Part shown: positions 22,247 through 55,082 of the stretch, one piece after another
How the letters are laid out: the number at the start of each line of letters is the position of its first letter
How positions within the stretch are numbered: position 1 is the stretch's first letter
Assembly: GCA_049325535.1 (NCBI GenBank)
Contig: JBMOKY010000001.1
Location: 877,942 to 941,941 of the forward strand
Direction: 5' to 3'
From: Patescibacteria group bacterium
GTDB lineage: Bacteria; Patescibacteriota; Patescibacteriia; UBA10025; JAHIVO01
Length of the DNA stretch: 64,000 bases
Translations under genes and position numbers: made by a program
The notes under the pieces: model-generated
What the model was told of the DNA's origin: nothing
Seen by the model: only the letters and a program-made list of their open reading frames with translations
Databases searched by the model: none

Positions 22247-23287
22247 CTAGAATGTCGCGGTGGCGATGTAGGTCAGATCAGCGGTATAAGTGCCAGCCTC
22301 GGTATCAGAGGCGATATTGGCCACGTACCGGGCAGAATAGGTTGTGTCTGACGAAGGTCCGCCAACTGAAGCAACTTCATCCGGAAAATTTACGGTGTCA
22401 AAGGCAAAACCCGCAGCCGCATACGGCGCTGATACCGCTCCCGACCCGCCGGAGGCGGTAAAGCGAACGCCAAACTGTTCGGCACCACCGCCATTTGGCG
22501 CGGTATTGGTGCCACCAATAGCGGTGATGGTATCGAGTCCAGCCGAGGTCAGTGTAGCGCCGTCCAGGGTGATGGAATACCCACCGGTGGCATTGGTCCC
22601 AGCTACTAGATCATGTGCTCCTGTCTCAGTCGCCGATCCAGTGCCGGCGCCATTGGCATACCGGTCAGCCGTGGTACTGAGTGAACCAAATCCGACGGAT
22701 GTGTCAGAAATGCTGAAGGTCAATGACGGGTCTACTGTAGCACTGACCGTCACCGTGTCATCTGAGACAATAGCCACCGACAATGAGCCGGAATCTGATG
22801 TGGTGGTAATATCGATCTCGTACGTATCGGCTGATGAGGGATTGGTAATCTCACCATTGGCTATAGCAAGTGTCTTGGCTCCGGCCGTCACCGTATCTCC
22901 GGTACACACCGTTAGGGTAATATTTTCATCCGGCGCGCTGGTATCGACTGCTGCGGTTACTTCGGCAGCAGCGCCGGTACAAGCATCCACCACGGTCAGT
23001 CCTGTCCCGGTCATATCGGCGTAGTCCAGCGTACCTTTCAACACAAAAGCGTCTGCCGCCGGATCAAACTGGATTTTGATGGTCTGCCCTGCGGTCAGTG
23101 CGGTAGCGGTGGTAAAGGTAATCTCATGGTCTGAATCGGTCGATGCCTGTAGTCGAGTCATGGTATCACTCAGATTTGTCAAAGCATCCGCGTGGAGAGC
23201 CGCCCGGGGTATGCTGATGGTCGCCGCGACCAGGAGCACGAGCATGATGATGGAAAATCGTTTTGAATAACGTGTGGCTTGTTTCAT
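22247..23287 (-). CDS. Small secreted WxL-like-domain protein (CscB/D-like); C-terminal ~160-aa domain shared with the 4422-aa protein
   Basis: 346-aa ORF with a signal peptide. The C-terminal domain (FSISDTSVGFGSLSTTADRYANG...GGYSITLDG...AGTYTADLTYIATATF) aligns position by position with the C-terminus of the giant protein (FSISDTTIGFGSLSATQDRYATG...GGYSIDIDG...AGNYTSNITYIITPEF). The pattern resembles the WxL domain (F-x-F-G start, proximal G-x-G-WxL, distal AGTYTAxLTWTL), with W replaced by Y. Confidence 0.55.
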   Translation of the reverse strand: MKQATRYSKRFSIIMLVLLVAATISIPRAALHADALTNLSDTMTRLQASTDSDHEITFTTATALTAGQTIKIQFDPAADAFVLKGTLDYADMTGTGLTVVDACTGAAAEVTAAVDTSAPDENITLTVCTGDTVTAGAKTLAIANGEITNPSSADTYEIDITTTSDSGSLSVAIVSDDTVTVSATVDPSLTFSISDTSVGFGSLSTTADRYANGAGTGSATETGAHDLVAGTNATGGYSITLDGATLTSAGLDTITAIGGTNTAPNGGGAEQFGVRFTASGGSGAVSAPYAAAGFAFDTVNFPDEVASVGGPSSDTTYSARYVANIASDTEAGTYTADLTYIATATF

Positions 23288-23432: not shown

Positions 23433-26400
23433 TCAAAATTCCGGCGTTATGATATAAGTTATATTCGACGTATAATTCCCCGCCTCGGTCTGAGAGCTGA
23501 TATTACTCATATATCTGACTGAATAGGTGGTGGTGCTCGATGCGCCGGCTGATGTGGCAAATGTATCCGGAAAATTTATGAGATCATAAGCAAACCCCGC
23601 ATCGGCATACGGCGCGCTGACTGAGCCGCTCCCGCCGCTAGCGGTGGCGCGGATACCATACTGCTCGGTACCGGTCTGCGATGCGGTGTTGGTGCCACCA
23701 ATATAATCAATACTATCCCCCGCGCCTGAAGTCAGAGTAGTGCCGTCGATATCGATACTATACCCCCCGCCGCCACTGGTAGCAGCCGCCAGAGTATGCG
23801 CCTGCACTTCTGTGTCTGATCCCGTACCGTCGCCCGTGGCATACCGGTCCTGCGTGGCGCTCAATGAGCCAAATCCGATGGTAGTATCGGAGATACTGAA
23901 ACTCATACTATTGATCAACCAGCAGTCGTTATTGGTAGCGTCAAAATTCGTGCCATTGGACGCGTCGATATCGGGCGCCTGGCCGCAGGCGTCTGAATCG
24001 CGCACGTTGGTATTGGACACTGACCGGGTACCGGCCACATGGATATCCCACTGGGTGCCGGTGGAAGAACTGCGCAAGAAAACCCGGGTGCCCGTCGCCT
24101 GGCCATTGAAGGAAATATTCTGGAAGGTATAGGTCGATCCGGCATTGAAACGCAGCTTGGTATTGGCCGTCGTGGCAGTAAAATTATTATCCGTTTCAGC
24201 AGCGGCGCTGAATATTACCGAGGGACTGGTCTCTGGATTTGAGCCGGAGCTATTGGTGATGGTAAGATTATAAAATGCCGAAGCGCCGGTCATGGTGCCG
24301 GAAAATGTCTGCTGGTTGATGCCGTCGGCGGTAACCGTACCCGACCGCGCTTCAAAGATGTCATTATTGGTCCAGTTTCCCGCTAGATACACCGAATAAT
24401 TACTTAAATTTTTCGTATCCAGTGTACCGCCGGTAATGGTCAGGTTTCCATTGACATCCAGATTTGATTCCAGCTGAAAGGTGTCACCATTGGCACTGTC
24501 ATTTAATACGACGTGGAAAAAATCATCACACGCGGCACACTGTGCGCCGGATGAATCAATATAGATGGTACCGCCGGGTTTGGCCGCACCGGTAAAGGTG
24601 GCCGTCGCCAGCTGTGACGTGAATGTGTCAGCATTGGTCCAGTCCCCGCCGATAGTTATAGCATTGCTTTCTGTGGATTTGGTATCGAGTATACCATCGG
24701 TAATGGTGATGTCATTTTCCACGGTCAGCGGATCTTCGATCTCGACCGTCAAATCGTACGTGCCGCCGCCGTCATCGATCACCAGATCATACGGATTGCC
24801 GGTACCGGCGGTGATCAGATCGCTGGTCACATCGCTGACAGCGGTAGCCGGAATCGTGAATGCCAGCGTAGAGCCGACATTCGTGCCGTCGCTGTTATTC
24901 AGCTGGGCGCCGGACTGGAGGTCAAATTTTCCATCGGTGGCCATATAGGTCCCATCAGTCTCCACATCATCATCCACATCCAGCCGGCCACCGCCCGATC
25001 CCCCATCAGCCGCGATGGTGATGCCCCCGATCCCGATATCCAAATCATACCCATGGGTATTGAATACATCACCATCATTAATGGTCAAAGACTTAGCAGT
25101 CATGTCAGTGGCCAGGTCAGTCGTATCAGGCGACGTGCCAATATGCACGTCTCCGACGCTTGTTTGGGTGACGCGGTTATCGGCGTACGTCAGATCGCCG
25201 TCGAGAATCAGCAGACCGGACGTAGCGGGATTGAACGTAGCGCCGGATGCGATGGTAAAATCACCGGCCACATTCAGATTTGACGACGCGTGATGGGTAA
25301 ATGAGCCGCTGGACACCGTAAACGTACCATTGACATCCATGGCGTCAGCACTCGAAACTGATCCGACACCTACCTGAAAATTCGACAGAGTTTTTCCGCC
25401 TGACGTGATCACTTTACTGGCGCCATTCATCAGCAGCGTGTGCCCAGCGGTCGCCGTAAACGTGTCGCAATTGCTCAAGGTCGTATTGCCAGTCACGGTC
25501 CAGGTCGCAGTGCCAGTAGTCACGCTGTTTGTGCTGGCGCCGGCGGTGCAGGATAGATCGTTGCCCACCGTGATGACGGCATTGTTGCTGGCCGCATTCA
25601 GATGTACGTTATGTGACCCATCACCGACGACCAAATCATGGGTGATGCTGTTTGCCGTGGGGCTGGTGAAGGTATAGGCGGGTGTGGCGCCGCCGCTTGG
25701 TTGGACGTGCAGATTATAATAGTAACTATAATTCGACAGGCTCTGGATGTCGGTAGCGACCTCGCCGGTGTACCGGAACGTGGATGTATTTCCCACGATC
25801 CGACCATTATTGATCACCGGCCTTGATCCACCGGTGCCGCCCTGGGTGATCACCCACGTTTTTGATCCCGCATGCAGCGCGTGACCATAGCACGACTCCT
25901 CGGTACAGCCGCAAATCTCCAACGGGTCGTACACCGCATCGGTAGTGATGACGCCGGTCACCGTCATCTGTCCCGTGCCTGTCGCGGTGGTTATCCGGTC
26001 AGCGCACTGGGTGGTGGATGACAGATGGAAATTATTGATCGACCAGGCGGTGTCGCCACCAAAACTCCCGCTAGTCGAAGGTATGGTCAAAGTGCCGGCA
26101 GTCAGATTCAAAATCCCATCACCGGTAATATCACCACCAGTGACCGTCAGATTTTGCGCGCCGGTGACGGTCGTGCCGCTACCTACCACCATATCATTGG
26201 AAACGGTCATGGGATCATCCAGCGTAATCGTGCCACTGCCTGAAGTCTGGAAATTATACGGGGACGTGTCACTGCCATACACATTATCAACAAACAAGGT
26301 GCCGGTCCCGTTCATGATCAGGGTACTGCCCGTGTCTGGAATAAACTGACCACGGGTCAGCTCGACATCGCCGCCGACCGTCCAGGTGCCGGCGCCGGCG

Positions 26401-29400
26401 CCGATGGTGGTGATGCCACCAGCGCCGTTATTGCTGAAATCACCACCAATCGTCACGGATGGATCATAACCACTGGCGTCAGCGGTCAGCAAAAAATCGA
26501 AATCACTGTTTATCAAAGTCAGATTACCGGTAATATCCGGGGTTTGTGAACCCGCCGTACCGATGGTGACCTGGCGACTGGCGCCTCCGGGCATATAAAA
26601 TTCCACATCCCCGCCGTATGTCCGGTCGCTCATGATGGTATTGTTATTGGTACAATCGAACCGCAAGATAGAGCTAATCGTACCTGTCGTGGGAAATGCC
26701 GTCGCAGGCCGGTATGCAAGTCGTCCCGCGCCGGAAATAACCCCATTCAGGGTGAGGGACCCAGTCGAATTCAGAGTTACGGTCCGCCCGGACGGTATGC
26801 TCAGCGTATCGCTGGTATCAACAGTCATGGTATTTGACACGCTGAAATCGGTATTCTGAACCGTGACCGTACCGGTTCCCGAAGGATACACATCCAAATT
26901 ATATAATGTCTCATCATTCAGATCGAGCGTGACCGATGCCCCACCCACATACAAAGTACTGGTGCCAGCGCTCAGGGTCACATTGCTATTGACCGTCATA
27001 TTGGAATAAACTATCGTAGTGACGGCACTCTGCAGCGTATAGGTGGTGCTGCTGGATGGCTGGAGCTGGAGCGTACTATAAAAAGAATTATCCACGGTGA
27101 CGCTGGTACCAGTATACCGCACGATGGAGTTATTCACAGGCTGGCCAGCGAGGATGGCGTCCATGGGTGTGCCGCTGGACATGGTCAAAATAATCAGTTT
27201 GTCATTGGGGTCGATCACATGAGTCCAGGTTTCCAGATTGAAACAAGTATCAGTAGTCAGCGTGCCGGAAAAAGTAAATGAACCAGCGCCGGTAAATGAT
27301 GATGTTTTGCTGCCGCACGAGGCATGCGTAAACTCCATGCTGCTAAACGACCAATCTTCCGCGCCACCGATAGTTGACGTGTAGGGAAACGTCATGGTGC
27401 CGCCGGTCATAGCTACCGTACCGTTACCGGTTAGACTGCTCAGAATAGTGAAATCCCCCGTACCATCCATCGTGCCATTGACCGTCACTGTGCTAGTCAT
27501 GCTGGTCGCGTCCACGTGGAGTGCGGCGGGATCTGACAGTACATTGGCAATAGTAATACCGCCGCTGAAATACGTCGTCCCGGCATCGAACCACATCTCC
27601 GACCCATCTTCCAAATATAACTGGGAGCCGCCACCAGTGTTGATCTTACCACCCGGATCAAACGAATCACCGGACCATAGGAGTAAGTTTCGACCACTGT
27701 CGAGCTGCAGATATCCAGCATCATAGTAGATCACGCCCGCGTCGCCATTATCAGCAGCGAGCATGTCCGCATTGGTCATTGGTCCGGCGTTTTCGTGCCG
27801 GACGATGATCCAATTGTCATACAGCCGGGCGCCAGTGATGGCGGATGACGTATCGGCCGCCAGAGTCACGAAATTTGCCTGGATTGACTCCCCGCTGTCG
27901 ATATACAGGATGATGGGATCGCCGGCGCTCGATGGGGGCAATACACTGATACTGAATGTGCCGTCGCCGGAAGTACAGGTCGCCGTGTCAGCCGACTCAC
28001 CATTGGTCGCGCCATGGATCGTGATGTTATTTGCGCTGCAATTGTACAGCGTCGAACCTTGATCAGAATATATCGCGCCGCTAACCGTAACTCCAGTGAA
28101 TATCCAGCAGTTATTACTGCCGCCGTCATTGCTGGTGCCGTCATAGGCGCGGATCGAATCCCCGCCGCAGGCGCTGGAATTACTGGGATTGGCGTAGCGG
28201 ACTGACTGAGTGCCGGTCACTACCAGATTCCATGACCCTACCCCGCTGGATCGGGCCAGATCGATGCGCGTACCTACCGCCTGCCCGTTGATATTGATAT
28301 TCACCCACGTATGGGTGGTGCCACCGACGAACCCGAGATTCGTATTTGCCGTGGTAGCGGTGAAGGTGCCATCCACGTCAGTGGAGGAACTGAAGACGAC
28401 GCCACCGACCGAGGCATTGGTCACGATCAGATCATAAAATGAATTGACTCCCGTCAGGGTACCCGTGATGGTCTGGGTGCTGGTGCCATTCAGCGTGATA
28501 GTCGCCGTACCGGAGCTAAAATTACCGTCAACCGACATATTCCCGCCGATACTCATGGAGCTCCATCCCTGCAGCGAATCGCCAGACGGCAATGTGAAGC
28601 TGCCGGTAATGGTCACGGTCGGAGGTGTCATTTCTACCAAATTCGAACCTGATGGAGAATTCGATGAAAAATTCCCGCTGACGGTCAGTGTACCCGCGCC
28701 AGCTTCAAAAAGCCTGCTTCCTCCGCTGTTATTGTATAATTCCAAATCCCCGCCGTACGCCCGGGCGACAAACAATGTATCGTCAACCGGTCCGGCGGTC
28801 GCGTCGAGCCGGACGTCCACATCCAGCGTACCACCGGCGTCCAGATTTGCCGTGTCAGTGAATACTAATAACCCAGCGCCATTGATCGTACCATCACTCA
28901 GCCACAGCGGCGAGCCGGTAGTGACCGACCGACCGGAATTGATAGTCAGCGTGCTCCCGGACGAGACAATCAAGTAATTAGAGGTGGTAAAATCAGTATT
29001 GGCTACGGTAACGGTGTTATTCGTCCCATTCACATACACTCGATAAAACGTCTTACCGCCTGCATCTATGGTCTTCCCGTCACCAGCCATCTGCAGAGCT
29101 GTGCCTGACGTATGGGAAAAACTAACTAATGTGTCGATATATAAATCGCCATACAAACTGCCACCATTGAGGGTGTAGGATGGGGTGCCGCTGGCCGGAT
29201 CCAGGCGGAGATTGTACAGTGTGCCGCCATATACGTCGGTCGCGGCCGTCCCCTCGAAACTAAATGTCGATGCCCCCCAAGAACTTATATTCAGTCCGTA
29301 GGTAGGCGCACCGGTGCCGGTGCCGCTGCCGGTAAAATGCCAGATCTTATCGCCCGTCGCCAGTCGCGCATAGTAGGCACACTCCATGCCACAGGAGCAA

Positions 29401-32400
29401 CTCTCCGAGGTGAGCTGATGGCTGACGGTCATTTCCCCGCTCCCCTGGGCGGTCATGGTGTAGCTGGCCGTACAGGCCCCACTGTAGCCGGCAGTCAAAT
29501 TATAAAATGTCCAGTTGGTATTCCCGGCGATGGTCGAGGTGTTCTGCACTTCCACGGTGCCGCCGGTCATATTGACGGTGCCATTACCGCTGAAGTCCCC
29601 CAGCACGGTGATATTGCTGGTACCCTGGATAGTGCCGCCATTGGCGGTGATATTCCCCGTCACATTCAGCGCGTTGCTCACCACCAGCGTACCCAGCGTC
29701 ATGGTCACATTGCTATTCACTGTCGTGGCGGAATTCAGCGTCCACTGCCCGCCGGAGCCATTGAACACCACCGTATTCACATCAGCATCCGTGGCGCTCG
29801 TGCTGTCGATGGTTTCGGTAGTGGTTGATTCAAAAGTAATCGTCTCGCTCGCGGCGTTATAATCCCCATTATTATCCCAGGACCCAGATACGGTCACCGA
29901 CGCGGCCGGGGTCAATTGCCCGTTGATTTCCACATCATGCGCTTCGAGCAAATCACTCCCGGTCAAATCCAGATGCGATCCCGACAGGATGCGTAGTTTA
30001 TCATCAGCATACACATCGTCATCGTCGACGGTAAACACCGGGCCATCCAGAGATGTCCAGCAGGAAAACATGATGTCCTCATCATTCACATTTTGATAGG
30101 TCGTCGCCGTACAGTGGCTATCCGTCAGCGTGGGATTGTCATCACTGCCGATAGTCAGTACGTGCGTATCGAGCACCATGCCGGTGATGTGGCCACTGCC
30201 GTCGTAAATGGTGATAGCCGTCGATTCGTTATCATTACCCACGTTATCAATCCATACATAGACCTCATCCCCGGATGACGGAGCGGTCACACCGGAAATC
30301 GTCCAGGTGCCGGAGGAAATCGTGGTCGTGGATCCTTGGAGGGTGCTATTGTACGCGTACCGTACGGTCGCGCCTTCATTGCCATTGGCCGTGCCAGATA
30401 TGGCAAACCCAAAATTCCAGTTCGTATTGGTGCCACAGTTGGTATTGGTGCCGTCATCGGCACCGATCTCACTGCCGCTTGATGCGTCAGACCGGGCCAC
30501 ATCGACATATGAGACAGCCGTCTGGGTTCCGGAAACATTGAGCAGCCACGTGCCGGAGGTCAGATTTGAATTCCGAAATACGATGAAGTTACCTACTGAA
30601 CCCGCCCAATTGATATTATTGACGGTGTACGTAGATCCGGAATTGTACTCTACTTCCACGCTGCCAGTGGTGATAGTGTAGGTGCCGGAGATGGTAGCCG
30701 CGGCTGCGAAATCGATGCTGGGGTTAAAAGACGTGGAGCACCCGGACCATGAACCGGCGGTGTTGGTCAGGATCAGATTATAAAAATTATTAGTCGAGGT
30801 AGTCATCGATCCGGACAATGTCTGCTTGGCAGTTCCGGACAGAGTGACTGTACCGAGATTATCGGTAAACGTACCATTATTGGTGTAGTCTCCTTTCAGG
30901 TCAAACGAACCGGTATTACTCGCTTCCCATACGGTACCCGTACCGATAGTCAATGCTTGAGTAATGGTAAATGTCGGATCGTAGGTATTCACCTGCACGG
31001 TCAGGGTCCCGGCACCCGCCCGGGTAGTGGTCACCCCTCCAGTAATGCTGAACGTGCGGCCGGCGGTATCCCCGAGGGTGATCGTCCGTGATGAAGCGGA
31101 ATTATTATACAGTTCCAAGATTTTACCCGACCCGACAAGCGTCCGGGTGCTGGCGGTGCCATTGACAGTGATGTCATTTGACGTGGCGTCCAGCCGAATA
31201 TTAGCACTGATCGAAGGACTGGCCGGCAGTGTCGATGCCTGGACGATGAGAGTCCCGTCGCCGCTGATGATAGAGGACGAATTATTAGCCAGTGAACCCG
31301 TGCTGGCCACCGTCGCGCTGTATGAACTGGCGATATCCAGCTGGGTAAGAGACGCGATGCTTAAGGTGTTGGTTACGGTCATATTTCCCGCTTGCATGTG
31401 TGCCACAGTTCCAAATCCGGTCAGGGAAAAATTATAAAACGAAGTACCATTTGGATACAGCGCGTCATCATCATCACCATCCATAGCCAGCGTATTGCCG
31501 GACGTGGCAGTATATGTCCCACCGGTGAAATCGACGATGTTGCTCACGGTCCACGTGCCTGTGCCGGAAGTGATAGACTCGCTTCCGCCACCGGTGCCAG
31601 TGAAGTCCAAATCACCGCCGATAGTCACCGTCGGATTATTGGTATTTGCCGCTACCGCCATCGTCTGGGTGCCGGCTGCCAGTACATGAAAATGCGCGCC
31701 TGAACCGGACAGAGTATAGGTGCCCGAGGCCAGGGTGGCCGTGCGCGTCCCGGCACTACTGCTGGAATAAAACTCTACCGGCCCAGCATACGTCCGGGCG
31801 TCGATGGTCGTCGATGCCACATCGCCACTCGTCGCGTCATAGCGAGTGATGGCACTCAAGGTACCGGTCGTCCCCGGACCACCGGCGCCATTCGGATAGA
31901 CTAGCCGTCCCGCACCGGATACCGTGCCATTGAGGGTGGTGTTGGCCGCATTGGTATGGGTCACGGTCCGGTCCGATCCGATGGAAAGCACATCATCAGT
32001 ATCGATATTCAGAGTATTGGTCACGGTCACATCATTCGAGCCGCCGACCGTCACCGTACCGACGGTACTGTCACCGATGGTCAGATTATAAAATGTGGTG
32101 TCGGTGGTGCCATTGATAGCGCCATTGCCCACCAGTTGCACCGTACTGGTACCACCGGTATACGTGCCGCCGTTATTGGTGAAATCACCGGTCACCGCCA
32201 TGGTATTGTCATTGCCATTGAATGTCTTGCCGGAACTGATGATAAATGACCCGGCTAAGTTTAAGGTCTGCGTGGTACTGTCATTAAATTTACTGTCCTC
32301 ATCGACCTGAAAATTATAAAACGAATGTGCCGCTGCCTGCACGTCATAATACGTCCGGGACGAGGAATCACCGCCGCCATTCAGCCCTAAATGCAGCGTG

Positions 32401-35400
32401 CCGCCACTGGGCGCCCCCCCAAGTCCATTACCCGTCACCAGCGTGGCAGTATTGTACACCAGGAAACCCCGAGCATAGAGATGGCCTCCAGTCATATAAA
32501 AATTGACGGTGCCAGGAGTGGTGTTTGCCCATTCCACGATGGCATTGTTCCCGGCATACACGCTGGCACCGGCCAGATAGGTGGTCGACCCGGCGCGCAG
32601 ACGGATATGCGAACTGTTTGCCGTATCGCCGGTGATGGTACCTGCGCTCCAATACCCCGTGCCGCCGGTGGCCTGGTACTCACCAGTAAATATGACACTG
32701 GCGCCAGTATCAAATATCAGCGTTCCGCCGCTGTGAGCGATGGTGCTGCCAGTTCCATTGCCCCAGACATTGACCGCTGTACTGATGGTCGTCGTGCCAT
32801 TGCTGACCAGGAGGTCATCGGCGATATTGATAGTGCCACCAGACAATGTCGTGGTACCGGTAGACGATAAATCTTCAACCAATCCATCGCCAATCGCAAA
32901 TGTGCCTCCGCTTACATTGAGCGTGCCTGTGACAGTGACACCGCTGTCACCATTGGCATTTGTCGAGTTTTGGACATTGAGCGTGGCGCCGGTATCGATG
33001 GTCGTGCTGCCGGCGATGGTATTGGTCGCGGTATCCAGGTACATGGTGGCACTATCATCCACATGCAGCGAACCGGTCCCCTGAGTGGTCACGGTGCCGT
33101 TCGGATCATACGTATCACCGGTCCAGAGGTGCAGTTCGAAATTTGAATCAACCGTCAGATTTGATGAGGCGACGTCGAATTTCACGTCGCTGTCTCCGCC
33201 CTCCCGGTCGCCTGACTCCAGATTCGCATTGGTGATGGATGCCCCATAATCGTTGCGCACGATGACGCGATTTTGGTACAGGTGGGCATTGGTCTGCGTG
33301 GTGCCATCGCTCTTGAATACCGTAGTCGCTTCTTCCGTCTCCTCATCCACAAATATGGTGATGACATCCCCGGCTGAGGCAGTCACGTTTGCTATGGTAT
33401 AGTCCCCGCTCGAGGTTTCTGCCGTGCACGCCCCGCCACCGCACGCGTTCGCATTGCCATTGACCCACAGTACGATGGTCTTTGCCGATGCGGTTATCTT
33501 GGTCGATCCTTCGTCAGAATACAGCGATCCGCCGATGCTGATGCCGCTGGCGGCACCGCAGCCGCTGGCATTGGTACACTCGGCCAGGATCACGTCGAAA
33601 TACTGCGGCTTGTGGTCAGTGCTGGCATTGAACGATGCGGTGATGGTATGCGTGTGGGTGCTACGCGCCACACCAGTGCCAGCAGCCGTACCGCCTGAAT
33701 TGGCGGATGGGGTTCCGGTATTGCCGCTGGTCTGATTGGCCATGCTATGGGTATCGGCTGATTGGGGGGTAGCGGAATAGCTAGATGACCCGCGGATGAA
33801 TTGGCCATTGTACGTCTGGCTGGCGCCAGACACCGTGGTCCAGCCAGTCGGCGGCGCGGCGTCCCACATGGCGATCATATTTTGCGGCACGCTATTGTCC
33901 GCCGTGGCCTGATAGATGAGCGACTGGATGTAGGAAGGTAAAGAGGTATATGAAGTGGAATTGGTAGCGGTAGGCGCGGTATGGGTATGAGTAAAAGATG
34001 CGGACCGGTACGTTGCCAAACCGATATCCTCATCAGCCGAGCCTGATGCGGCGGTCAGTGATCCCCAGGTCAGCGAATGGGTGTGCGTGTTGGCCGTCCC
34101 GCCAGTCGCGTGGGAATTATTTATTTTTACCATGCGGTCGTCCGCGCTACTGAATTGGGACCAGCTGCCGCTGGGTGTGGTATCGAAAAACACAAACGCA
34201 TTATTCGGAATGGTAGTGGGATCTGTGGAATTGCTTTTCCACAGGTAAAACGTGTAATTGAGCGGATCATTATTAGCGCTGCCCACCGTCAGACTATTGA
34301 TCCCATGGGTATGACTGGTCAACGACATGATGGAACAAAAATCAGAGCATCCATGGTCAGATACTTCCGTGGACGGCGCGCTGATAGTCTGGCCGGAGAC
34401 GGTGTGCGTGTGCGATGTCGCACCGCCCGAGGGCGGGGTAGCATCGGTACTGGCCGCACCACGAGGATAGTAGCCATTGTAGGTCGTATCAGTCGTCCAC
34501 CCGGTGGGTGCCGAGCTGGAATTCCCCAGTACAAACATATAGGCCGGATCGATGACCAGCTGCCAGGCGCGCGCCTCCTGCCACTCACCCACCTGCGCCG
34601 GGCCAAAAGCAAATAGTGCCGGACTTTTTTCTGGCGATTTGAATGCATAGGTCAGCTCGGTATCGCTTCCCGCTGCCAGATCCACCTCCCACACGATGGA
34701 ATGCACGATGGCCGACCCGGTGTCATACGGCTCCACGCGCCCGCCCTGACCCGGCTCCACCGTAAATTCACCCGGGATGAGCTCACGTACTATGCCGGCG
34801 AAATCATCGCGCGCATGTACCCGCAGCGTCATCGGCTGAGGCACATTCGGGAAAACGCGGGTGGGACCCTGCCGGGTAATATAATACGCCGGGTCCTCAG
34901 CTACGGTAAACGAATCAGTCAGCCGCCGCTCGTCCCCCTGTACCGCGGCAACGAGCTCCACGCTATATCGCCCGATAACGGTCGGCGTGTACACGGCCAC
35001 ATAGTCCGGTCCCTCGTAGACGTCTTTCACCGAGCAATAGTCGGTGACCGCAATCGACCCATCGGCTGACGACAGGATGGAGACGGTGCCCTGAGGATCA
35101 GTGATCCTGAGCAGCATGTCCGCGGTACAGACGATATGGCCGGTGTCATCCACCGCGCCGAGAGAAAACGTGACGTCCTGCCCGAGCCGGTACTGCGCCT
35201 GGTCGGTATTCATGGCCAGTCCGCCCCAGACAAACTCATAGACGACCTCCTTGGTCCGGCCATCCTGCTCCACTGCCACGGTCACCGAGTATTTGCCCGG
35301 CCGGGTAAATGAACCAGTGCCCACCGTCACCGCTGCGGTCGTGTCACCGCCAGATTCTGATTCGGTGACAGCGATTCGCGCGTCCTGGGTGGTGCCATTG

Positions 35401-36701
35401 GGGTCGGTGATGGCCACGTTTTTGATTTCGCGGGTAGTCGGCTCGACGCCTAAGAATTCGAAATTGGACCCTTCTTTTATAGTGACGTCAATCACCGGCT
35501 GCTCATCCAGGGCGAAATTACCGTCACCCTCCACATCGACAAATGCGGTACTCTCCTCGATCTGCTGGATGACCGGGTCCGGCTCCTGCACCGTCGCCCG
35601 GACGGTCACCCCGTCTATCCATGCCGCCGTGGCTGCGTCCGCCGAGCCAGAAGCAAATGTTGCCCGGAATCGAACTTGGGTGATCTGGGCGATGCTGGTG
35701 ATATCAGGAAGCGGATAGATGAAAAAATCTCCATGAATAGCGTTGCTAAAATTTTCAGTGAGCGCCATCGATTCCAGTGCCATCCAGGTCTGGCCGGCAT
35801 CAGCCGAATACTCCAGTACCAGCACATCATCACTGGCAGAGTCCCCCTGGGCGGCTAATGAAATCGCGAGGGCCACCTCGGAAATAGTAGATGCTGGATC
35901 CACGCTGTCCGGCAGCCGGAACCCGCCAACCGTGAGGATTGGGTCAGAGGTATCCAGCGGCGCATCGGTGACCTCACCGATAGAAGCGGGCTGATCCTCG
36001 ATCACGGTAGTATGCTCTATCTCCACCGGCTGTTGGTCGGCCGGCTGCAATGCGTGGAAATGCGCAGCATTGTCATCGGTGAAATCGCCGATACCCGCCG
36101 TGGGCAGCGCATCGATCTCCATCACTGCCGCAGTCGCATCCCAGCCCGCAGCCGTACTCGGTGCCAGTGTGTATGTCTCTACCGGCGCCTGTCCAGCCCG
36201 AGCCAAATAAATATAGGCAAAGAAGCTGACCTGCACTACGGCAAACGTAAATGCGACGAGGAGGACGGAAAAAATGTATAGGGAAAATTTACGGCTCAAA
36301 AAATACAGCTGGAACCAGCGCCAGGAAAATCCCGGTTTGAGCACGTAGCGATTGTCATCTGATTCCGGCACGACTGGTGCGACAGGCACTACCACGATCC
36401 GCTTGTGCGGCGGCAGCGACTGATAGAAGGAGCGGATCGCTTCACGGTCATATCGTCGGTCCTGCCGGATACCGATGCGGACAGCACGAAGCCGACCAGA
36501 ACGGTCCCAGTTCCGGAGGGTATTTGGGTGCACGCCAAGGATTTCGCTGACCTGCTCTATGGTGAGCAAATGCGGCAGCGAATCAAAGTCTATGGAGCGT
36601 TCCTGTACGGTTGGCGTCTGTTTTTGTTTTTTCTTAAACCAAAACAGCTCCACGAATTTACTTTTTACTTTCGCTTCAATTAGCGAAAAATAATCATTCA
36701 C
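23433..36701 (-). CDS. Giant (4422 aa) surface protein: N-terminal excisionase/MerR-type HTH + TM segment, ~4000-aa Thr/Gly/Ser-rich beta-helix-like repeat region, C-terminal WxL-like domain
   Basis: 13.3-kb uninterrupted ORF with a GTG start at 36701. Residues ~45-95 (LLTIEQVSEILGVHPNTLRNWDRSGRLRAVRIGIRQDRRYDREAIRSF) match the HTH_17/excisionase DNA-binding domain. Residues ~130-165 form a TM helix. Internal repeated modules such as GTRIDLARSSGVGSWNLVVTGTQSVRYANPSNSSACGG recur several times. The C-terminal 160 aa are homologous to the 346-aa neighbour. Confidence 0.6.
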   Translation of the reverse strand: MNDYFSLIEAKVKSKFVELFWFKKKQKQTPTVQERSIDFDSLPHLLTIEQVSEILGVHPNTLRNWDRSGRLRAVRIGIRQDRRYDREAIRSFYQSLPPHKRIVVVPVAPVVPESDDNRYVLKPGFSWRWFQLYFLSRKFSLYIFSVLLVAFTFAVVQVSFFAYIYLARAGQAPVETYTLAPSTAAGWDATAAVMEIDALPTAGIGDFTDDNAAHFHALQPADQQPVEIEHTTVIEDQPASIGEVTDAPLDTSDPILTVGGFRLPDSVDPASTISEVALAISLAAQGDSASDDVLVLEYSADAGQTWMALESMALTENFSNAIHGDFFIYPLPDITSIAQITQVRFRATFASGSADAATAAWIDGVTVRATVQEPDPVIQQIEESTAFVDVEGDGNFALDEQPVIDVTIKEGSNFEFLGVEPTTREIKNVAITDPNGTTQDARIAVTESESGGDTTAAVTVGTGSFTRPGKYSVTVAVEQDGRTKEVVYEFVWGGLAMNTDQAQYRLGQDVTFSLGAVDDTGHIVCTADMLLRITDPQGTVSILSSADGSIAVTDYCSVKDVYEGPDYVAVYTPTVIGRYSVELVAAVQGDERRLTDSFTVAEDPAYYITRQGPTRVFPNVPQPMTLRVHARDDFAGIVRELIPGEFTVEPGQGGRVEPYDTGSAIVHSIVWEVDLAAGSDTELTYAFKSPEKSPALFAFGPAQVGEWQEARAWQLVIDPAYMFVLGNSSSAPTGWTTDTTYNGYYPRGAASTDATPPSGGATSHTHTVSGQTISAPSTEVSDHGCSDFCSIMSLTSHTHGINSLTVGSANNDPLNYTFYLWKSNSTDPTTIPNNAFVFFDTTPSGSWSQFSSADDRMVKINNSHATGGTANTHTHSLTWGSLTAASGSADEDIGLATYRSASFTHTHTAPTATNSTSYTSLPSYIQSLIYQATADNSVPQNMIAMWDAAPPTGWTTVSGASQTYNGQFIRGSSSYSATPQSADTHSMANQTSGNTGTPSANSGGTAAGTGVARSTHTHTITASFNASTDHKPQYFDVILAECTNASGCGAASGISIGGSLYSDEGSTKITASAKTIVLWVNGNANACGGGACTAETSSGDYTIANVTASAGDVITIFVDEETEEATTVFKSDGTTQTNAHLYQNRVIVRNDYGASITNANLESGDREGGDSDVKFDVASSNLTVDSNFELHLWTGDTYDPNGTVTTQGTGSLHVDDSATMYLDTATNTIAGSTTIDTGATLNVQNSTNANGDSGVTVTGTLNVSGGTFAIGDGLVEDLSSTGTTTLSGGTINIADDLLVSNGTTTISTAVNVWGNGTGSTIAHSGGTLIFDTGASVIFTGEYQATGGTGYWSAGTITGDTANSSHIRLRAGSTTYLAGASVYAGNNAIVEWANTTPGTVNFYMTGGHLYARGFLVYNTATLVTGNGLGGAPSGGTLHLGLNGGGDSSSRTYYDVQAAAHSFYNFQVDEDSKFNDSTTQTLNLAGSFIISSGKTFNGNDNTMAVTGDFTNNGGTYTGGTSTVQLVGNGAINGTTDTTFYNLTIGDSTVGTVTVGGSNDVTVTNTLNIDTDDVLSIGSDRTVTHTNAANTTLNGTVSGAGRLVYPNGAGGPGTTGTLSAITRYDATSGDVASTTIDARTYAGPVEFYSSSSAGTRTATLASGTYTLSGSGAHFHVLAAGTQTMAVAANTNNPTVTIGGDLDFTGTGGGSESITSGTGTWTVSNIVDFTGGTYTATSGNTLAMDGDDDDALYPNGTSFYNFSLTGFGTVAHMQAGNMTVTNTLSIASLTQLDIASSYSATVASTGSLANNSSSIISGDGTLIVQASTLPASPSISANIRLDATSNDITVNGTASTRTLVGSGKILELYNNSASSRTITLGDTAGRTFSITGGVTTTRAGAGTLTVQVNTYDPTFTITQALTIGTGTVWEASNTGSFDLKGDYTNNGTFTDNLGTVTLSGTAKQTLSGSMTTSTNNFYNLILTNTAGSWSGCSTSFNPSIDFAAAATISGTYTITTGSVEVEYNSGSTYTVNNINWAGSVGNFIVFRNSNLTSGTWLLNVSGTQTAVSYVDVARSDASSGSEIGADDGTNTNCGTNTNWNFGFAISGTANGNEGATVRYAYNSTLQGSTTTISSGTWTISGVTAPSSGDEVYVWIDNVGNDNESTAITIYDGSGHITGMVLDTHVLTIGSDDNPTLTDSHCTATTYQNVNDEDIMFSCWTSLDGPVFTVDDDDVYADDKLRILSGSHLDLTGSDLLEAHDVEINGQLTPAASVTVSGSWDNNGDYNAASETITFESTTTETIDSTSATDADVNTVVFNGSGGQWTLNSATTVNSNVTMTLGTLVVSNALNVTGNITANGGTIQGTSNITVLGDFSGNGTVNMTGGTVEVQNTSTIAGNTNWTFYNLTAGYSGACTASYTMTAQGSGEMTVSHQLTSESCSCGMECAYYARLATGDKIWHFTGSGTGTGAPTYGLNISSWGASTFSFEGTAATDVYGGTLYNLRLDPASGTPSYTLNGGSLYGDLYIDTLVSFSHTSGTALQMAGDGKTIDAGGKTFYRVYVNGTNNTVTVANTDFTTSNYLIVSSGSTLTINSGRSVTTGSPLWLSDGTINGAGLLVFTDTANLDAGGTLDVDVRLDATAGPVDDTLFVARAYGGDLELYNNSGGSRLFEAGAGTLTVSGNFSSNSPSGSNLVEMTPPTVTITGSFTLPSGDSLQGWSSMSIGGNMSVDGNFSSGTATITLNGTSTQTITGTLTGVNSFYDLIVTNASVGGVVFSSSTDVDGTFTATTANTNLGFVGGTTHTWVNININGQAVGTRIDLARSSGVGSWNLVVTGTQSVRYANPSNSSACGGDSIRAYDGTSNDGGSNNCWIFTGVTVSGAIYSDQGSTLYNCSANNITIHGATNGESADTATCTSGDGTFSISVLPPSSAGDPIILYIDSGESIQANFVTLAADTSSAITGARLYDNWIIVRHENAGPMTNADMLAADNGDAGVIYYDAGYLQLDSGRNLLLWSGDSFDPGGKINTGGGSQLYLEDGSEMWFDAGTTYFSGGITIANVLSDPAALHVDATSMTSTVTVNGTMDGTGDFTILSSLTGNGTVAMTGGTMTFPYTSTIGGAEDWSFSSMEFTHASCGSKTSSFTGAGSFTFSGTLTTDTCFNLETWTHVIDPNDKLIILTMSSGTPMDAILAGQPVNNSIVRYTGTSVTVDNSFYSTLQLQPSSSTTYTLQSAVTTIVYSNMTVNSNVTLSAGTSTLYVGGASVTLDLNDETLYNLDVYPSGTGTVTVQNTDFSVSNTMTVDTSDTLSIPSGRTVTLNSTGSLTLNGVISGAGRLAYRPATAFPTTGTISSILRFDCTNNNTIMSDRTYGGDVEFYMPGGASRQVTIGTAGSQTPDITGNLTLINSDFDFLLTADASGYDPSVTIGGDFSNNGAGGITTIGAGAGTWTVGGDVELTRGQFIPDTGSTLIMNGTGTLFVDNVYGSDTSPYNFQTSGSGTITLDDPMTVSNDMVVGSGTTVTGAQNLTVTGGDITGDGILNLTAGTLTIPSTSGSFGGDTAWSINNFHLSSTTQCADRITTATGTGQMTVTGVITTDAVYDPLEICGCTEESCYGHALHAGSKTWVITQGGTGGSRPVINNGRIVGNTSTFRYTGEVATDIQSLSNYSYYYNLHVQPSGGATPAYTFTSPTANSITHDLVVGDGSHNVHLNAASNNAVITVGNDLSCTAGASTNSVTTGTATWTVTGNTTLSNCDTFTATAGHTLLMNGASKVITSGGKTLSNFQVGVGSVSSADAMDVNGTFTVSSGSFTHHASSNLNVAGDFTIASGATFNPATSGLLILDGDLTYADNRVTQTSVGDVHIGTSPDTTDLATDMTAKSLTINDGDVFNTHGYDLDIGIGGITIAADGGSGGGRLDVDDDVETDGTYMATDGKFDLQSGAQLNNSDGTNVGSTLAFTIPATAVSDVTSDLITAGTGNPYDLVIDDGGGTYDLTVEIEDPLTVENDITITDGILDTKSTESNAITIGGDWTNADTFTSQLATATFTGAAKPGGTIYIDSSGAQCAACDDFFHVVLNDSANGDTFQLESNLDVNGNLTITGGTLDTKNLSNYSVYLAGNWTNNDIFEARSGTVTADGINQQTFSGTMTGASAFYNLTITNSSGSNPETSPSVIFSAAAETDNNFTATTANTKLRFNAGSTYTFQNISFNGQATGTRVFLRSSSTGTQWDIHVAGTRSVSNTNVRDSDACGQAPDIDASNGTNFDATNNDCWLINSMSFSISDTTIGFGSLSATQDRYATGDGTGSDTEVQAHTLAAATSGGGGYSIDIDGTTLTSGAGDSIDYIGGTNTASQTGTEQYGIRATASGGSGSVSAPYADAGFAYDLINFPDTFATSAGASSTTTYSVRYMSNISSQTEAGNYTSNITYIITPEF

Positions 36702-36720
36702 TTACCAAAAAACTGATTAC

Positions 36721-36749
36721 AGTATAGCAGAAAAAAAAGAATTTGTCTA
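36721..36749 (-). promoter_or_regulatory. Candidate promoter (TAGACA-N17-TATACT) for the giant-protein operon
   Basis: On the minus strand, TAGACA (36749-36744), a 17-nt spacer and TATACT (36726-36721) lie about 20 nt upstream of the GTG start. A weak hairpin plus T-run for the upstream GT2 gene precedes it. Confidence 0.35.
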
Positions 36750-36834
36750 CTCAATGGCTACAATAAATAAACGCGATTTTCTCGCGCCCCGTCATATCTC
36801 TGAATGAGGCATAAATTATGGGCCGAAGACTCAA

Positions 36835-37557
36835 TTACTTAACAACTTTTTTCCTGCCTAAACGGAGCAAAATCACCTGCCAAAAGCTCTCAAACATGAT
36901 CCCTATACTAAACTTTGATTTACCGGCCCGCCGTTCTACGAATGTGATGGGAATTTCCCGGATATGCCATCCGGCGCGATAGGCACGGTAGGTAAGCTCA
37001 ATCTGAAAATTATACCCGCGCGAGGCTACGGCCGCTAAATCCATTTTTTCCAGCACCACCCGGCGAAAACATTTATAGCCCCCGGTGAGGTCATGAATCG
37101 GGGACCCGAGAATCAGCCGGATGAGCCGGTTTGCAGTCGAAGAAATGAATAGCCGCATGGCATGCCAGTTCTCTACCCCGCCGCCCTGGATATACCGAGA
37201 CCCGAGGACGATATCGGCGCTTTCGATGGCGCGCAGGAAATCCGGGATATACCGCGGCTGATGGGAAAAATCAGCATCCATCTCAAAGACATACGCCACC
37301 GTCGGATCGCGTAGTACCTGCTGGAATCCCGCCACATACGCTTTACCCAGCCCTTCTTTCTCTTTCCGGTGCAGTACCGCTACGCGGGACTCACGCCGGG
37401 CAATGTCATCCGCCAGCTGACCCGTCCCATCCGGGGAATTGTCATCGACCACCAGCACCGAAAGCTCGGGTACCGGAAGCGCCAGCAAAGCCCTGACGAT
37501 ATCCTCGAGGTTATCGCGCTCATTGTACGTCGGAAGAATGACCGTTGCTTTAGCCAT
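36835..37557 (-). CDS. GT2-family polyprenyl-phosphate glycosyltransferase (dolichyl/undecaprenyl-phosphate mannosyl- or glucosyltransferase-like)
   Basis: 240-aa ORF containing ILPTYNERDNLE, VDDNSPDGT and a DAD motif, the GT-A fold of DPM1/Ppm1-like enzymes. Confidence 0.85.
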   Translation of the reverse strand: MAKATVILPTYNERDNLEDIVRALLALPVPELSVLVVDDNSPDGTGQLADDIARRESRVAVLHRKEKEGLGKAYVAGFQQVLRDPTVAYVFEMDADFSHQPRYIPDFLRAIESADIVLGSRYIQGGGVENWHAMRLFISSTANRLIRLILGSPIHDLTGGYKCFRRVVLEKMDLAAVASRGYNFQIELTYRAYRAGWHIREIPITFVERRAGKSKFSIGIMFESFWQVILLRLGRKKVVK

Positions 37558-37651
37558 AGAATGAACTCAGTGTAGCACGCTAAACGAAAAAAGTGTATTG
37601 GCACCTTTTGACGCACGGCCTCTATTTTATTATAATAACCCCACTCAACCT

Positions 37652-39136
37652 ATGCCCGACCTCCTCAAGCCCAACGAAAAACAAGCGCAAAAGATTCGGA
37701 AATTTGACCCATCGATTTATCAGCCGTCCGAATCGTCTGGAGCCGCACCGCGTACTTCCACCCGCCGAGGATCACGCCTGCTTTTGTGGTCTTCAGTTAG
37801 TTTGGTGGTGGTCATCATCATGATCGGCGCAGTATTCATGACTCGCGTCATCGCGGCGGTAAACAGTACCAATACTGAAACCGGGGAAAAAGTGGGCCTC
37901 TTCGACCAGATCCGCCATCTCATCAGCAATCCCGAACAACAGCTCAATGGAGAGGCTGACGACCGAATCAATATTCTGCTGGCCGGCATCGGTGGCGCCG
38001 GACATCAGGGTGCCTATCTGGCCGATACTATCATCCTCATGAGCATCAAGCCGTCCACCAATGATATCGCCATGATGTCCATTCCACGCGACCTCTACGT
38101 AGAAATACCCGACTACGGCTTCCGCAAAATCAATAATGCGCTGGCATTCGGCGTTCAGTCAGACTATCCGGGCGGGGGTGAGGCGCTGCTCGCCCAGGTG
38201 GTATCTGATACCTTTGACGTGCCCGTTCATTATTTCGCTCGCATTGATTTTGAAGGCTTTCGCAAAGCCATCGATAATCTCGGCGGCATCGATGTCACTA
38301 TTGATGCTGCGTTTACCGACTACGAATACCCGGACTACAACTACGGCTACCAAGTAATCTCATTCAAAAAAGGTATCGAACACATGACCGGCGAACGGGC
38401 GCTCCAGTTTGTCCGCTCGCGCCACGGTAATAATGGCGAGGGGTCTGATTTCGCCCGCTCCCAGCGCCAACAAAAAGTCCTCTTTGCCCTGAAAAATCAA
38501 TTTTTCTCCGTCAATAACCTGATTAACCCATCGAGTGTGGTATCCGCTCTAGAAAGCCTGGGGCAGCACAATCAAACCAACATGGAAATATGGGAAATCG
38601 TCCGGCTGGCAAAAATGTCCGAACCAGTACAGAAAAGCGACATCATCACCATCACCCTCGACACGAGTGAAGAGGGATACCTCTATTCTGACCATACCCT
38701 GGACGGGGCTTACATCCTACGCCCCACCGCCGGTGATTTTACGGAAATACAGCTTCGGCTCGCCACTATCTTTGACACCAGCAATATCAGCCGTGAACAC
38801 GCGCGGATCGAAGTGCAAAATGGCACCACTACTGAAGGTTTGGCCACTCAAACGGCTGATCTGCTGCGGCAGGAGCACTTCAATGTGGTGCAGGTGGGCA
38901 ATGTCGACAGCGAAAACGAGGTCAGTACCACCACGATCTATGATCTGTCCAACGGCACCAAACCGTACACACTGGCCAGTTTGAAAAATCTGCTCAATGC
39001 CCGCATCGCCCCGGCGACGCCAGCGGCAGCCACCAACACTGGAATCCCCACGGCAGTCGACGACTCAGCCGACATACTTATCATTATCGGCGCTGATTAC
39101 ATCCAGCCATCCCAACTGACGCAAGCCACCAATTAA
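37652..39136 (+). CDS. LytR-CpsA-Psr (LCP) family cell-envelope phosphotransferase with C-terminal LytR_C domain
   Basis: The ORF is called from a TTG at 37598; the first ATG is at 37652 (MPDLLK...). It has an N-terminal TM helix and the LCP core (DRINILLAGIGGAGHQGAYLADTIILMSI...SIPRDLYVEIPDYGFRKINNA). Confidence 0.85.
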   Translation: MPDLLKPNEKQAQKIRKFDPSIYQPSESSGAAPRTSTRRGSRLLLWSSVSLVVVIIMIGAVFMTRVIAAVNSTNTETGEKVGLFDQIRHLISNPEQQLNGEADDRINILLAGIGGAGHQGAYLADTIILMSIKPSTNDIAMMSIPRDLYVEIPDYGFRKINNALAFGVQSDYPGGGEALLAQVVSDTFDVPVHYFARIDFEGFRKAIDNLGGIDVTIDAAFTDYEYPDYNYGYQVISFKKGIEHMTGERALQFVRSRHGNNGEGSDFARSQRQQKVLFALKNQFFSVNNLINPSSVVSALESLGQHNQTNMEIWEIVRLAKMSEPVQKSDIITITLDTSEEGYLYSDHTLDGAYILRPTAGDFTEIQLRLATIFDTSNISREHARIEVQNGTTTEGLATQTADLLRQEHFNVVQVGNVDSENEVSTTTIYDLSNGTKPYTLASLKNLLNARIAPATPAAATNTGIPTAVDDSADILIIIGADYIQPSQLTQATN

Positions 39137-55021: not shown

Positions 55022-55052
55022 ACGATAGTGGCCTTAGTATAGCAGAAAAACG

Positions 55053-55082
55053 TTGACAAAAACAGTGGATTTCTAGTAGAAT
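55053..55082 (+). promoter_or_regulatory. Sigma70-like promoter TTGACA-N18-TAGAAT upstream of the tRNA-Leu fragment / GIY-YIG / tRNA-Leu unit
   Basis: TTGACA at 55053-55058 and TAGAAT at 55077-55082, about 25 nt upstream of the tRNA-Leu-like 5' fragment. Confidence 0.45.

Follow-up and report, generated by a model that had tools for sequence, protein, structure and literature searches.

We analysed a stretch of 64,000 nucleotides from a Patescibacteria group bacterium (contig JBMOKY010000001.1; hereafter the window, meaning the whole stretch at its full length) with a focus on a minus-strand gene which encodes a giant surface protein headed by a DNA-binding helix-turn-helix (HTH) domain. In gene content, the window is an ordinary bacterial chromosome with genes for GT2, LytR-CpsA-Psr, Der, Pth, a T2SSE-type ATPase, PilM, Mfd, DprA, TopA, ParAB, Lgt, DsbA, SOD and NifS/IscS, and the close relatives of the giant gene were all found in assemblies of Patescibacteria (Candidate Phyla Radiation, CPR). 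The giant gene is listed as an open reading frame (ORF) at 23433..36701 with a GTG start and 4422 amino acids (aa), and its translation is the same as that quoted in a preliminary description of the locus. Not a single stop codon occurs across the HTH, the hydrophobic segment that follows and the remaining ~4,250 residues. The listed GTG at 36701 is located ~13 nt past the predicted transcription start, within a conserved non-coding leader motif. In the aligned orthologous 5' regions the conserved start is instead GTG 36653, which reads MELFWFKKKQKQ... and matches VDLRWFQKNKNQ of the orthologue at locus L003. Judging from this alignment, GTG 36653 and not 36701 is probably the true start; hence, the earlier figure of 4422 aa holds for the ORF, but the precursor would comprise 4406 aa. 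The features discussed below are collected in Table 1.

Table 1. Features of the giant gene and its upstream region, in the direction of transcription (positions in the window)
Feature	Position	Strand	Basis and remarks
Upstream motif copy TTGTTAAGT	36837..36845	-	~120 nt before the -10; overlaps the end of the GT2 gene
-35 hexamer TAGACA of a sigma-70-type promoter	36744..36749	-	Promoter scan, 10/12 matches, TG before the -10
Extended -10, TGCTATACT	36721..36729	-	Promoter scan; TnTATAnT columns invariant in the leader alignment
Leader motif TTGGTAAGT, candidate HTH operator	36700..36708	-	Leader alignment; 14 nt after the -10
Second leader element CGCTAATTGAAGCG, consensus GCTAAnnTAAGC	36672..36685	-	Leader alignment; ~15 nt past the first motif
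Probable true coding sequence of the giant precursor	23433..36653	-	4406 aa; start re-assigned via aligned orthologous 5' regions
Winged HTH (HTH_17/MerR-like, BldC/Xis-like), predicted cytoplasmic	36420..36569	-	ORF residues 45-94; Pfam, AlphaFold, Foldseek
Conserved juxtamembrane segment RYVLKPGFSWRWFQLYFLSRK, positively charged	36288..36350	-	Residues 118-138; alignment, AlphaFold short helix
Single hydrophobic segment, transmembrane anchor or long-signal-peptide h-region	36204..36287	-	Residues 139-166; Kyte-Doolittle, AlphaFold helix
Ala-Arg-Ala, signal-peptidase-I-type AXA	36195..36203	-	Residues 167-169; putative cut A169/G170
Membrane-proximal extracellular module, immunoglobulin (Ig)/macroglobulin (MG)-like beta-sandwiches	34902..36194	-	First 431 residues after AXA; profile search, AlphaFold, Foldseek
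Remaining extracellular giant	23433..34901	-	His-x-His-rich region, Thr/Gly/Asn-rich repeats; no Pfam match

The N-terminal domain is assigned to Pfam HTH_17 (PF12728; E=1.8e-11, 44.6 bits vs the 27-bit cut-off); MerR_1 (31.7 vs a cut-off of 21.6) and MerR also match, while the NCBIfam excisionase and BldC-family models give weak matches under their cut-offs. Apart from the HTH, Pfam recognises nothing over the whole protein, and no other copies of this HTH were found within the window. AlphaFold, run on 26 homologues, predicts a beta-alpha-alpha-beta-beta-alpha winged helix with pLDDT of 95–97 (strand 29–31, helices 32–39 and 43–52, strands 58–60 and 65–69, helix 70–79), followed by a linker modelled at low confidence, a short juxtamembrane helix and then the long transmembrane (TM) helix. 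No coiled coil is predicted after helix 3, and the domain has neither a dimerisation helix nor an effector-binding domain. The top Foldseek matches are mycobacteriophage Pukovnik Xis (TM-score 0.82) and BldC (TM-score 0.81–0.87), at 30–32% identity, followed by MerR N-domains, RacA, GlnR and lambda gpNu1. The same two proteins lead a phmmer search of PDB sequences (Pukovnik Xis, E=9.6e-6; BldC, 2e-4). Over the 26 homologues, 13 HTH residues are invariant (LP.LL..., H.NT.R.WD, R.G.R.DRR), and the invariant arginine of the recognition helix aligns with the base-contacting arginine of BldC (PMC5859096).

Members of this HTH subfamily are also found in other settings. Stand-alone genes encoding proteins of 58–67 aa are common in Patescibacteria. 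At L018 (9998–14893), the domain makes up the N-terminus of a polytopic GT2 (cellulose-synthase-like) protein of 1632 aa, at L056 (9998–11230) that of a C5 cytosine DNA methylase, and at L019 (9995–10351) it forms a 119-aa protein with a C-terminal TM segment. The GT2 and C5 methylase fusions would suit a reading of this HTH as a portable self-regulatory module. In turn, homologous giants carry at least two other types of N-terminal cytoplasmic HTH at the same place, before the TM segment: some are headed by a divergent HTH_17-like type ('KYISLKEAAKISGYSSDYIGYLIRKGKI'), sometimes duplicated or in tandem, and others by two to four transposase-like HTH_23/HTH_28 domains (P0057, P0081, P0086, P0106, P0113, P0115, P0119 and P0126; P0072 and P0093).

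We found that the fusion of HTH, TM segment and giant ectodomain recurs in at least 13 independent genomes, at 32–50% identity to the window protein. A scan with one genome per species returned 228 matching stretches, and in L003–L012 and L014–L017 the HTH, one hydrophobic segment (~residues 100–160) and a giant ORF follow each other in a single unbroken frame. The orthologue of L008 has 3870 aa and ends in a stop, and the ORFs of L009, L011, L015 and L016 extend over at least 3900–4011 aa, running past the fetched flank. A profile search with the HTH, the TM segment and the first ectodomain module among 1.84 billion cluster representatives gave 4231 matches at E<=1e-3. Most of the best 150 of these match via the extracellular module only; 28 of the 150 possess the same HTH and TM segment, with lengths up to 6677 aa, and most of the others begin with an ordinary signal peptide or anchor, without this HTH. 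A word-index homology search with residues 1–200 as a query gave no match; with residues 1–700 it found P0001 and P0002, each of which has the HTH, the TM segment and the same ectodomain in one chain, so that the former negative reflects a problem of sensitivity and not a real absence.

Between the window and its orthologues, 35–44 of 58 HTH residues (60–76%) are identical, with just 24–40% identity at third codon positions, i.e., at saturation. As the amino acids are kept while third positions diverge, the HTH is maintained as a translated protein, under purifying selection. In-frame GTG/TTG codons follow the HTH ahead of the TM segment (codons 103, 105, 111, 120 and 135), and an internal start there was considered and rejected, since these codons are conserved in no orthologue and position 120 is isoleucine in several. 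We regard the fusion as almost certainly real and translated. The preliminary description had placed an HTH and a single TM helix (~135–165) on the N-terminus of the giant, with neither an in-frame stop nor an obvious internal start between them, and had raised the questions of recurrence in related genomes and of conserved internal starts in homologues. The architecture agrees with our results throughout, with one HTH_17 match and exactly one hydrophobic segment in 4422 residues, and it recurs as described above; conserved internal starts do not exist among the candidate codons.

Two orthologues are interrupted. In a single-cell genome (L002/L013), the protein is split into 543 aa (HTH, TM segment and first domains) and 5954 aa by a frame-shifting deletion at 11600–11640, with ~25 codons lost, corresponding to ~residues 597–622 of the window protein; the two ORFs overlap by ATGA, like in translational coupling. 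P0001 (L001, 10920–10995) stops at residue 1053, with an in-frame TGA at a glycine of the window protein, near the contig end; homology runs on in frame after it until the contig ends with another TGA. Either a contig-end sequencing error or, possibly, TGA as a sense codon could account for this; under translation table 11, the remaining genes of the L001 contig look normal. Besides, several contigs with clear Patescibacteria-type orthologues (L010, L011, L012, L026, L039, L040 and L053) are labelled as 'uncultured Gammaproteobacteria' or 'Zixiibacteriota', and they are probably mis-binned or mislabelled.

The DNA-binding domain and the TM region thus belong to one protein according to Pfam, Kyte-Doolittle and AlphaFold. 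The only hydrophobic stretch detected by Kyte-Doolittle analysis over 4422 residues (~139–168) is separated from the HTH by a linker of ~40 residues, which, like the juxtamembrane segment, is conserved as protein. In 26 homologues, lysines and arginines flanking the hydrophobic segment average 3.5 on the N-terminal side vs 1.3 on the C-terminal side, and aspartates and glutamates 0.35 vs 1.6. By the positive-inside rule, a type-II orientation (N-in/C-out) is predicted, which would place the HTH in the cytoplasm.

When homologues were anchored on a conserved C-x-G-W motif for comparison of signal peptides, the hydrophobic segment was found to end in small-x-Ala, 14–17 residues upstream of C-x-G-W in most of them. 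The -1 residue is alanine in 26/27 HTH-bearing and 28/31 HTH-less homologues, and HTH-less homologues with textbook cleavable signal peptides have AXA in the same register as the HTH-bearing ones. The window protein follows a signal-peptide layout as well (SRK / FSLY...IYL / A-R-A|G, i.e., charged n-region, h-region and small residues at -3/-1), with an n-region of ~120 residues that holds a folded domain. Since segment and AXA align with the signal peptides of HTH-less relatives, the 'TM helix' is by homology the h-region of a signal peptide, and the HTH may be an N-terminal extension of its n-region. Position 36195, given earlier as the lower limit of the HTH-TM head, is accordingly the last base of the A169 codon, at -1 of the Ala-x-Ala motif, and not simply the end of the TM helix. 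The homology with cleavable signal peptides implies that the mature adhesin may lack the HTH altogether. The uncharged span before AXA is signal-peptide-like in the distant HTH-bearing clade (17–23 residues; median of 14.5 in HTH-less homologues). In the clade of the window, however, it reaches 28 residues, longer than in typical signal peptides, and may act as an uncleaved anchor. On these grounds, putative cleavage of the window's own protein seems to us a nearly even question, leaning slightly toward no.

Upstream of the gene, the promoter scan identified a strong sigma-70-type promoter, and the pattern T[AG]GACA-N17-(TG)nTAYAHT is present upstream of 17/17 orthologues examined. It is preceded by a terminator-like hairpin of the upstream GT2 gene (36789–36769). 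The identical extended -10 TGCTATACT is also found upstream of parA (55030–55070, minus strand; -35 TTGTCA), which suggests that this is a standard strong promoter form of the genome. Within the leader, TAAGT is invariant in the alignment of orthologues: the motif [GA][GT]TAAGT follows the promoter in all 17, at +14/+15 from the -10 in 13 and at +32/+33 in 4, in the form TT[G]G/TTAAGT. TKGKTAAGT occurs at only 3 sites in the window and not at its other promoters. The second leader element, CGCTAATTGAAGCG, is a partial inverted copy of the first motif. In L001, L005 and L015, an extra GTTAAGT is located at +6, giving two copies 9 bp apart, and in L003, L004 and L009, a same-strand copy lies at a distance (-118 to -133) similar to that of the upstream copy in the window.

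The same motif follows the HTH subfamily into a different gene context. We examined 62 loci with stand-alone 58–67-aa HTH proteins, mainly of Saccharibacteria, Doudnabacteria and Moranbacteria. In the 200 nt upstream of these small HTH genes, G[GT]TAAGT occurs at 2.85 per kb vs 0.27 per kb overall, with a background in 0.92 Mb of CPR DNA at about chance level, and both GTTAAGT and GGTAAGT come first among 210 composition-matched permutations. Of 59 non-redundant upstream regions, 42 contain TAAGTT, and of 45 TAAGT..ACTTA inverted pairs in 1.31 Mb, 21 fall within the 2% of DNA directly upstream of HTH genes. Among giants, TTGGTAAGTTA was found upstream of 2/3 distant HTH-bearing homologues (in P0019 again at +14 after a -10), the third having the variant TTGGTAACTT; it is absent upstream of 5/5 HTH-less giants. 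Many of the small HTH genes (L019–L082; e.g., L024, L045, L062, L057 and L078) display a near-palindrome, AAACTTA-TGG-TAAGTTT, ~30 nt or less before the start, and others have GTTAAGTTA...TAACTTAAC and then an A/C-rich leader (GAAACAAAAACA). A motif which tracks an HTH subfamily in this way is what one would expect if a transcription factor had its operator at its own gene, as far as a correlation between sequences can indicate.

The LytR-CpsA-Psr gene at 37598–39136 (plus strand) is divergent from the giant gene and lies upstream of it, with the GT2 gene intervening in some loci. This arrangement is found in the window and in 10 other HTH-bearing loci (L002–L005, L009, L014, L017 and L208–L210), and in 0/5 loci of HTH-less homologues. 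The LytR-CpsA-Psr gene may have either of two roles, as a further target of the HTH or as a partner that functions in attachment to the cell wall.

We favour, with somewhat better than an even chance, the reading that the giant is a membrane-tethered, BldC-like autoregulator, i.e., a transmembrane transcription regulator (TTR) whose ectodomain resembles an adhesin or S-layer protein. Putative autoregulation through the TAAGT leader, taken by itself, appears reasonably probable. The precursor would comprise a cytoplasmic winged HTH of ~60 residues, a 40-residue linker, the hydrophobic segment and an ectodomain of ~4,250 residues. Its membrane-held HTH would bind the TAAGT repeats at ~+8 to +50 of its own transcript region, just downstream of the strong sigma-70 promoter, and would thereby exert negative feedback on a very costly protein. 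The giant would then be a TTR whose output gene is itself, possibly together with the divergent LytR-CpsA-Psr gene. As a plausible further step, signal peptidase I would cut after Ala-Arg-Ala (167–169), and each exported giant would leave behind one membrane-anchored HTH stub of ~150 residues. Extended to an export-counting circuit, the scheme would have every signal-peptidase cut leave such a BldC-like repressor stub in the membrane to bind the TAAGT operator of its own gene, so that transcription of the 13-kb gene is throttled by the number of successful exports (secretion-coupled feedback); the stub might later be freed by intramembrane proteolysis. This extension we rate as rather doubtful. 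Given the two or more other HTH types at the same position in CPR giants, such a circuit would have arisen repeatedly.

Several points weigh against autoregulation. Both DNA binding by the HTH and its target are deduced from co-occurrence of the motif. Two distant homologues have the motif ahead of the nearest promoter-like site instead of downstream of it, and the window leader holds one good copy, plus the one ~120 nt upstream. The motif was first spotted by eye in orthologues; the independent tests are strong, but still correlative. Finally, a metagenome scan with the 18-mer GTTAAGTTTGKTAAGTTA gave 120 matches, almost all of them chance, coding or microsatellite hits and, as such, uninformative on a regulon; orthologous leaders among them were only L087 (same contig as L015) and L185.

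Among the alternatives, the one that survives best, though we consider it unlikely, is a one-component sensor of the ToxR/CadC kind, in which the giant ectodomain senses host contact, load or a ligand and the uncleaved HTH acts on a regulon. Its topology, with a cytoplasmic DNA-binding domain, one TM segment and an extracellular part, is that of TTRs (PMC10269533); the divergent LytR-CpsA-Psr genes, present in HTH-bearing and missing from HTH-less loci, make a second target plausible, and the long hydrophobic span in the clade of the window suits an uncleaved anchor. What counts against it is above all the ectodomain itself. For the membrane-proximal 431 residues, AlphaFold predicts beta-sandwich domains (mean pLDDT 89.6), which Foldseek likens to domains 4–5 of the Sap S-layer protein, RbmA, the Ig-like domains of PrgB, AgI/II adhesins and the MG domains of alpha-2-macroglobulin. 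The fold search for a sensor thus returned generic Ig/MG-like stalk domains only, with no recognisable sensor fold. Most homologous giants lack any HTH, which implies that sensing was not the role for which the ectodomain evolved; there is also the conserved AXA site, and a BldC-like HTH without a dimerisation or effector domain offers no obvious means of signal transmission. Of the 'transmembrane signalling or autoregulatory device' proposed in the preliminary description, the second half is favoured by the TAAGT motif after the gene's own promoter and by its enrichment with the subfamily, whereas the first finds no recognisable sensing domain. The parallel with RsgI-type anti-sigma factors that sense polysaccharide was likewise not borne out, since neither Pfam nor NCBIfam detects RsgI_N and the ectodomain starts with Ig/MG-like domains. 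As a separate observation, the ectodomain contains His-x-His motifs (SHTHT, SHTHG, THTHS, THTHT, STHTHT) at ~33600–34400 on the minus strand (ORF residues ~770–1030), a region which is conserved with P0001, has no Pfam match and recalls the metal-binding HxH repeats of phage tail fibres.

It is improbable, in our view, that the TAAGT leader is unrelated to the HTH and represents an element of mRNA stability or translation, or a general promoter-proximal feature, the targets of the HTH lying elsewhere. The motif does lie in a transcribed leader and forms part of a partial inverted repeat that pairs in 72% of cells, and the DNA upstream of the small HTH genes shows an enrichment of A/C-rich words too (e.g., AACAAAA). 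A structured RNA was considered and rejected as the main explanation: RNAalifold on the aligned leaders yielded 0 pairs and no consensus structure, 0/9 pairs of the hand-drawn hairpin show a compensatory change, its arms being conserved as sequence, and an Rfam scan of the leader gave only chance-level miRNA/snoRNA matches. These results favour a protein-binding DNA site over an RNA structure. A general promoter feature is at odds with the near-chance background of the motif and with its absence from the five HTH-less homologues and from the other promoters of the window.

Slightly less credible still is the possibility that the HTH is no transcription factor but a protein-protein or nucleoid-tethering module, RodZ- or RacA-like, placing the export site or keeping the gene at the membrane while its transcription, translation and insertion are coupled. 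The structural matches include RacA, RodZ-type proteins with an HTH, a TM segment and a periplasmic part (HTH_25 and DUF4115) are common among the catalogued TTRs, and the presence of two or more additional HTH types at this place in homologous giants suggests that contact with DNA or the nucleoid was itself selected. Yet, those residues of the recognition helix and wing that typify sequence-specific binding by MerR/BldC do not vary, and a pure protein-protein role leaves the co-occurrence of motif and HTH in two unrelated gene contexts unexplained. Lastly, the proposal of a separate small HTH gene joined to the giant by a frameshift or mis-assembly in this contig, which the abundance of stand-alone 58–67-aa HTH genes, the split at L002/L013 and the early stop of P0001 might seem to invite, is effectively refuted, because the fused frame recurs in at least 13 independent assemblies as well as in 28 cluster representatives, purifying selection acts on the HTH, the linker is conserved as protein, and the two interruptions are located well within the ectodomain, a long way past the HTH and TM segment.

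Between the giant gene and a gene for a dockerin and Big_13 protein (20279–21139, minus strand) are two genes of ~345 aa each without Pfam matches (21151–22182 and 22247–23287). The dockerin gene adjoins a gene for a cohesin-domain protein (19124–20272, minus strand), and the pair could represent a possible cohesin-dockerin surface assembly in a CPR bacterium. A second giant of 2730 aa (4553–12745, minus strand) has a T4SS_pilin-like N-terminal domain (residues 56–123) followed by Big_5, Big_7 and Big_3_3, and is without an HTH. A run of surface-protein genes ends, on the strand of the giant gene and ~7 kb downstream of it, with a signal peptidase I gene (15507–16154; Peptidase_S26, E=2e-44).

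The CPR/Patescibacteria comprise tiny bacteria, most of them epibionts, in which few regulators can be recognised and for which giant surface proteins are thought to serve in host attachment. A conserved, gene-encoded link between giant and HTH provides a testable handle on the control of the most expensive products of these cells, for which the comparative data name the HTH fragment (ORF residues 17–100), the DNA (36660–36760) and the motif (TAAGT repeats). If it is true that the HTH belongs to a cleaved signal peptide, this would be a new way to couple secretion to transcription. As for annotation, such genes should not be split, nor named 'HTH domain-containing protein' without mention of the giant ectodomain, and the start should here be shifted to 36653.

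We found no description in the literature of HTH-headed giant surface proteins in CPR or of HTH-bearing signal peptides. Of the known systems, the minimal MerR-like winged HTH of the giant has its best matches, by structure and sequence, among the BldC family and the phage/ICE excisionases (Xis, RdfS). BldC, which is devoid of domains for dimerisation or effector binding, attaches head-to-tail to direct repeats of 9 bp (PMC5859096), a spacing which resembles that of the GTTAAGT copies, candidate sites 9 bp apart, in L001, L005 and L015. The stand-alone 58–67-aa relatives look like ordinary BldC/excisionase-type members. In contrast to BldC, a stand-alone protein of ~68 aa, the HTH of the giant is the N-terminus of a 4406-aa membrane or secreted precursor, and the candidate repeat [G/T]TAAGT differs from the BldC unit AATTxxxx(C).

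With RsiV and RsiP, type-II regulatory proteins which are cut by signal peptidase (PMC4183432, PMC8844934), the giant shares the single pass, the cytoplasmic regulatory domain and the signal-peptidase-type site outside the membrane. Unlike in these proteins, its cytoplasmic domain is an HTH in place of an anti-sigma domain, there is no evident control of cleavage by a ligand, none of the annotated ORFs of the window is seen to encode a site-2 protease, and cleavage of the giant is itself putative.

Certain enzymes and transporters, SsoII-type C5 DNA methyltransferases for example, bear an N-terminal HTH by which their own gene is repressed. The logic of a portable N-terminal HTH is similar here, the same subfamily heading the C5 methylase of L056 and the GT2 synthase of L018; in the giant, however, the cargo is an exported surface protein, and the HTH must consequently act from the membrane. 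RodZ has an N-terminal Xre-type HTH that binds MreB, one TM segment and an extracytoplasmic domain, and RacA is a soluble protein with a MerR-like winged HTH which tethers the chromosome to the cell envelope and binds DivIVA via a coiled coil; neither of them is fused to an adhesin.

The closest parallel in overall topology is with TTRs (ToxR, TcpP, CadC and others), which are widespread and were catalogued by Demey et al. (2023, PMC10269533). Among the DNA-binding domains of TTRs, the survey lists HTH_17, a minor one, at 151 and MerR at 386 of 50,302, and the word 'Patescibacteria' does not occur in the searchable text of its files. Similar to TTRs, the giant is a single chain with its DNA-binding domain in the cytoplasm, one membrane pass and an extracytoplasmic C-terminus. 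Yet, the likeness to ToxR drawn in the preliminary description stops at the DNA-binding domain, which is of the MerR/Xis/BldC type and not, as in ToxR-like receptors, of the OmpR type (Pfam matches are HTH_17 and MerR only). Furthermore, the extracytoplasmic part is a structural protein of ~4,250 residues in place of a small sensor domain, the likely target is the gene itself, and the membrane segment bears a signal-peptidase motif. The class of TTRs is already known, and the HTH-headed giant would represent a variant of it with features of its own.

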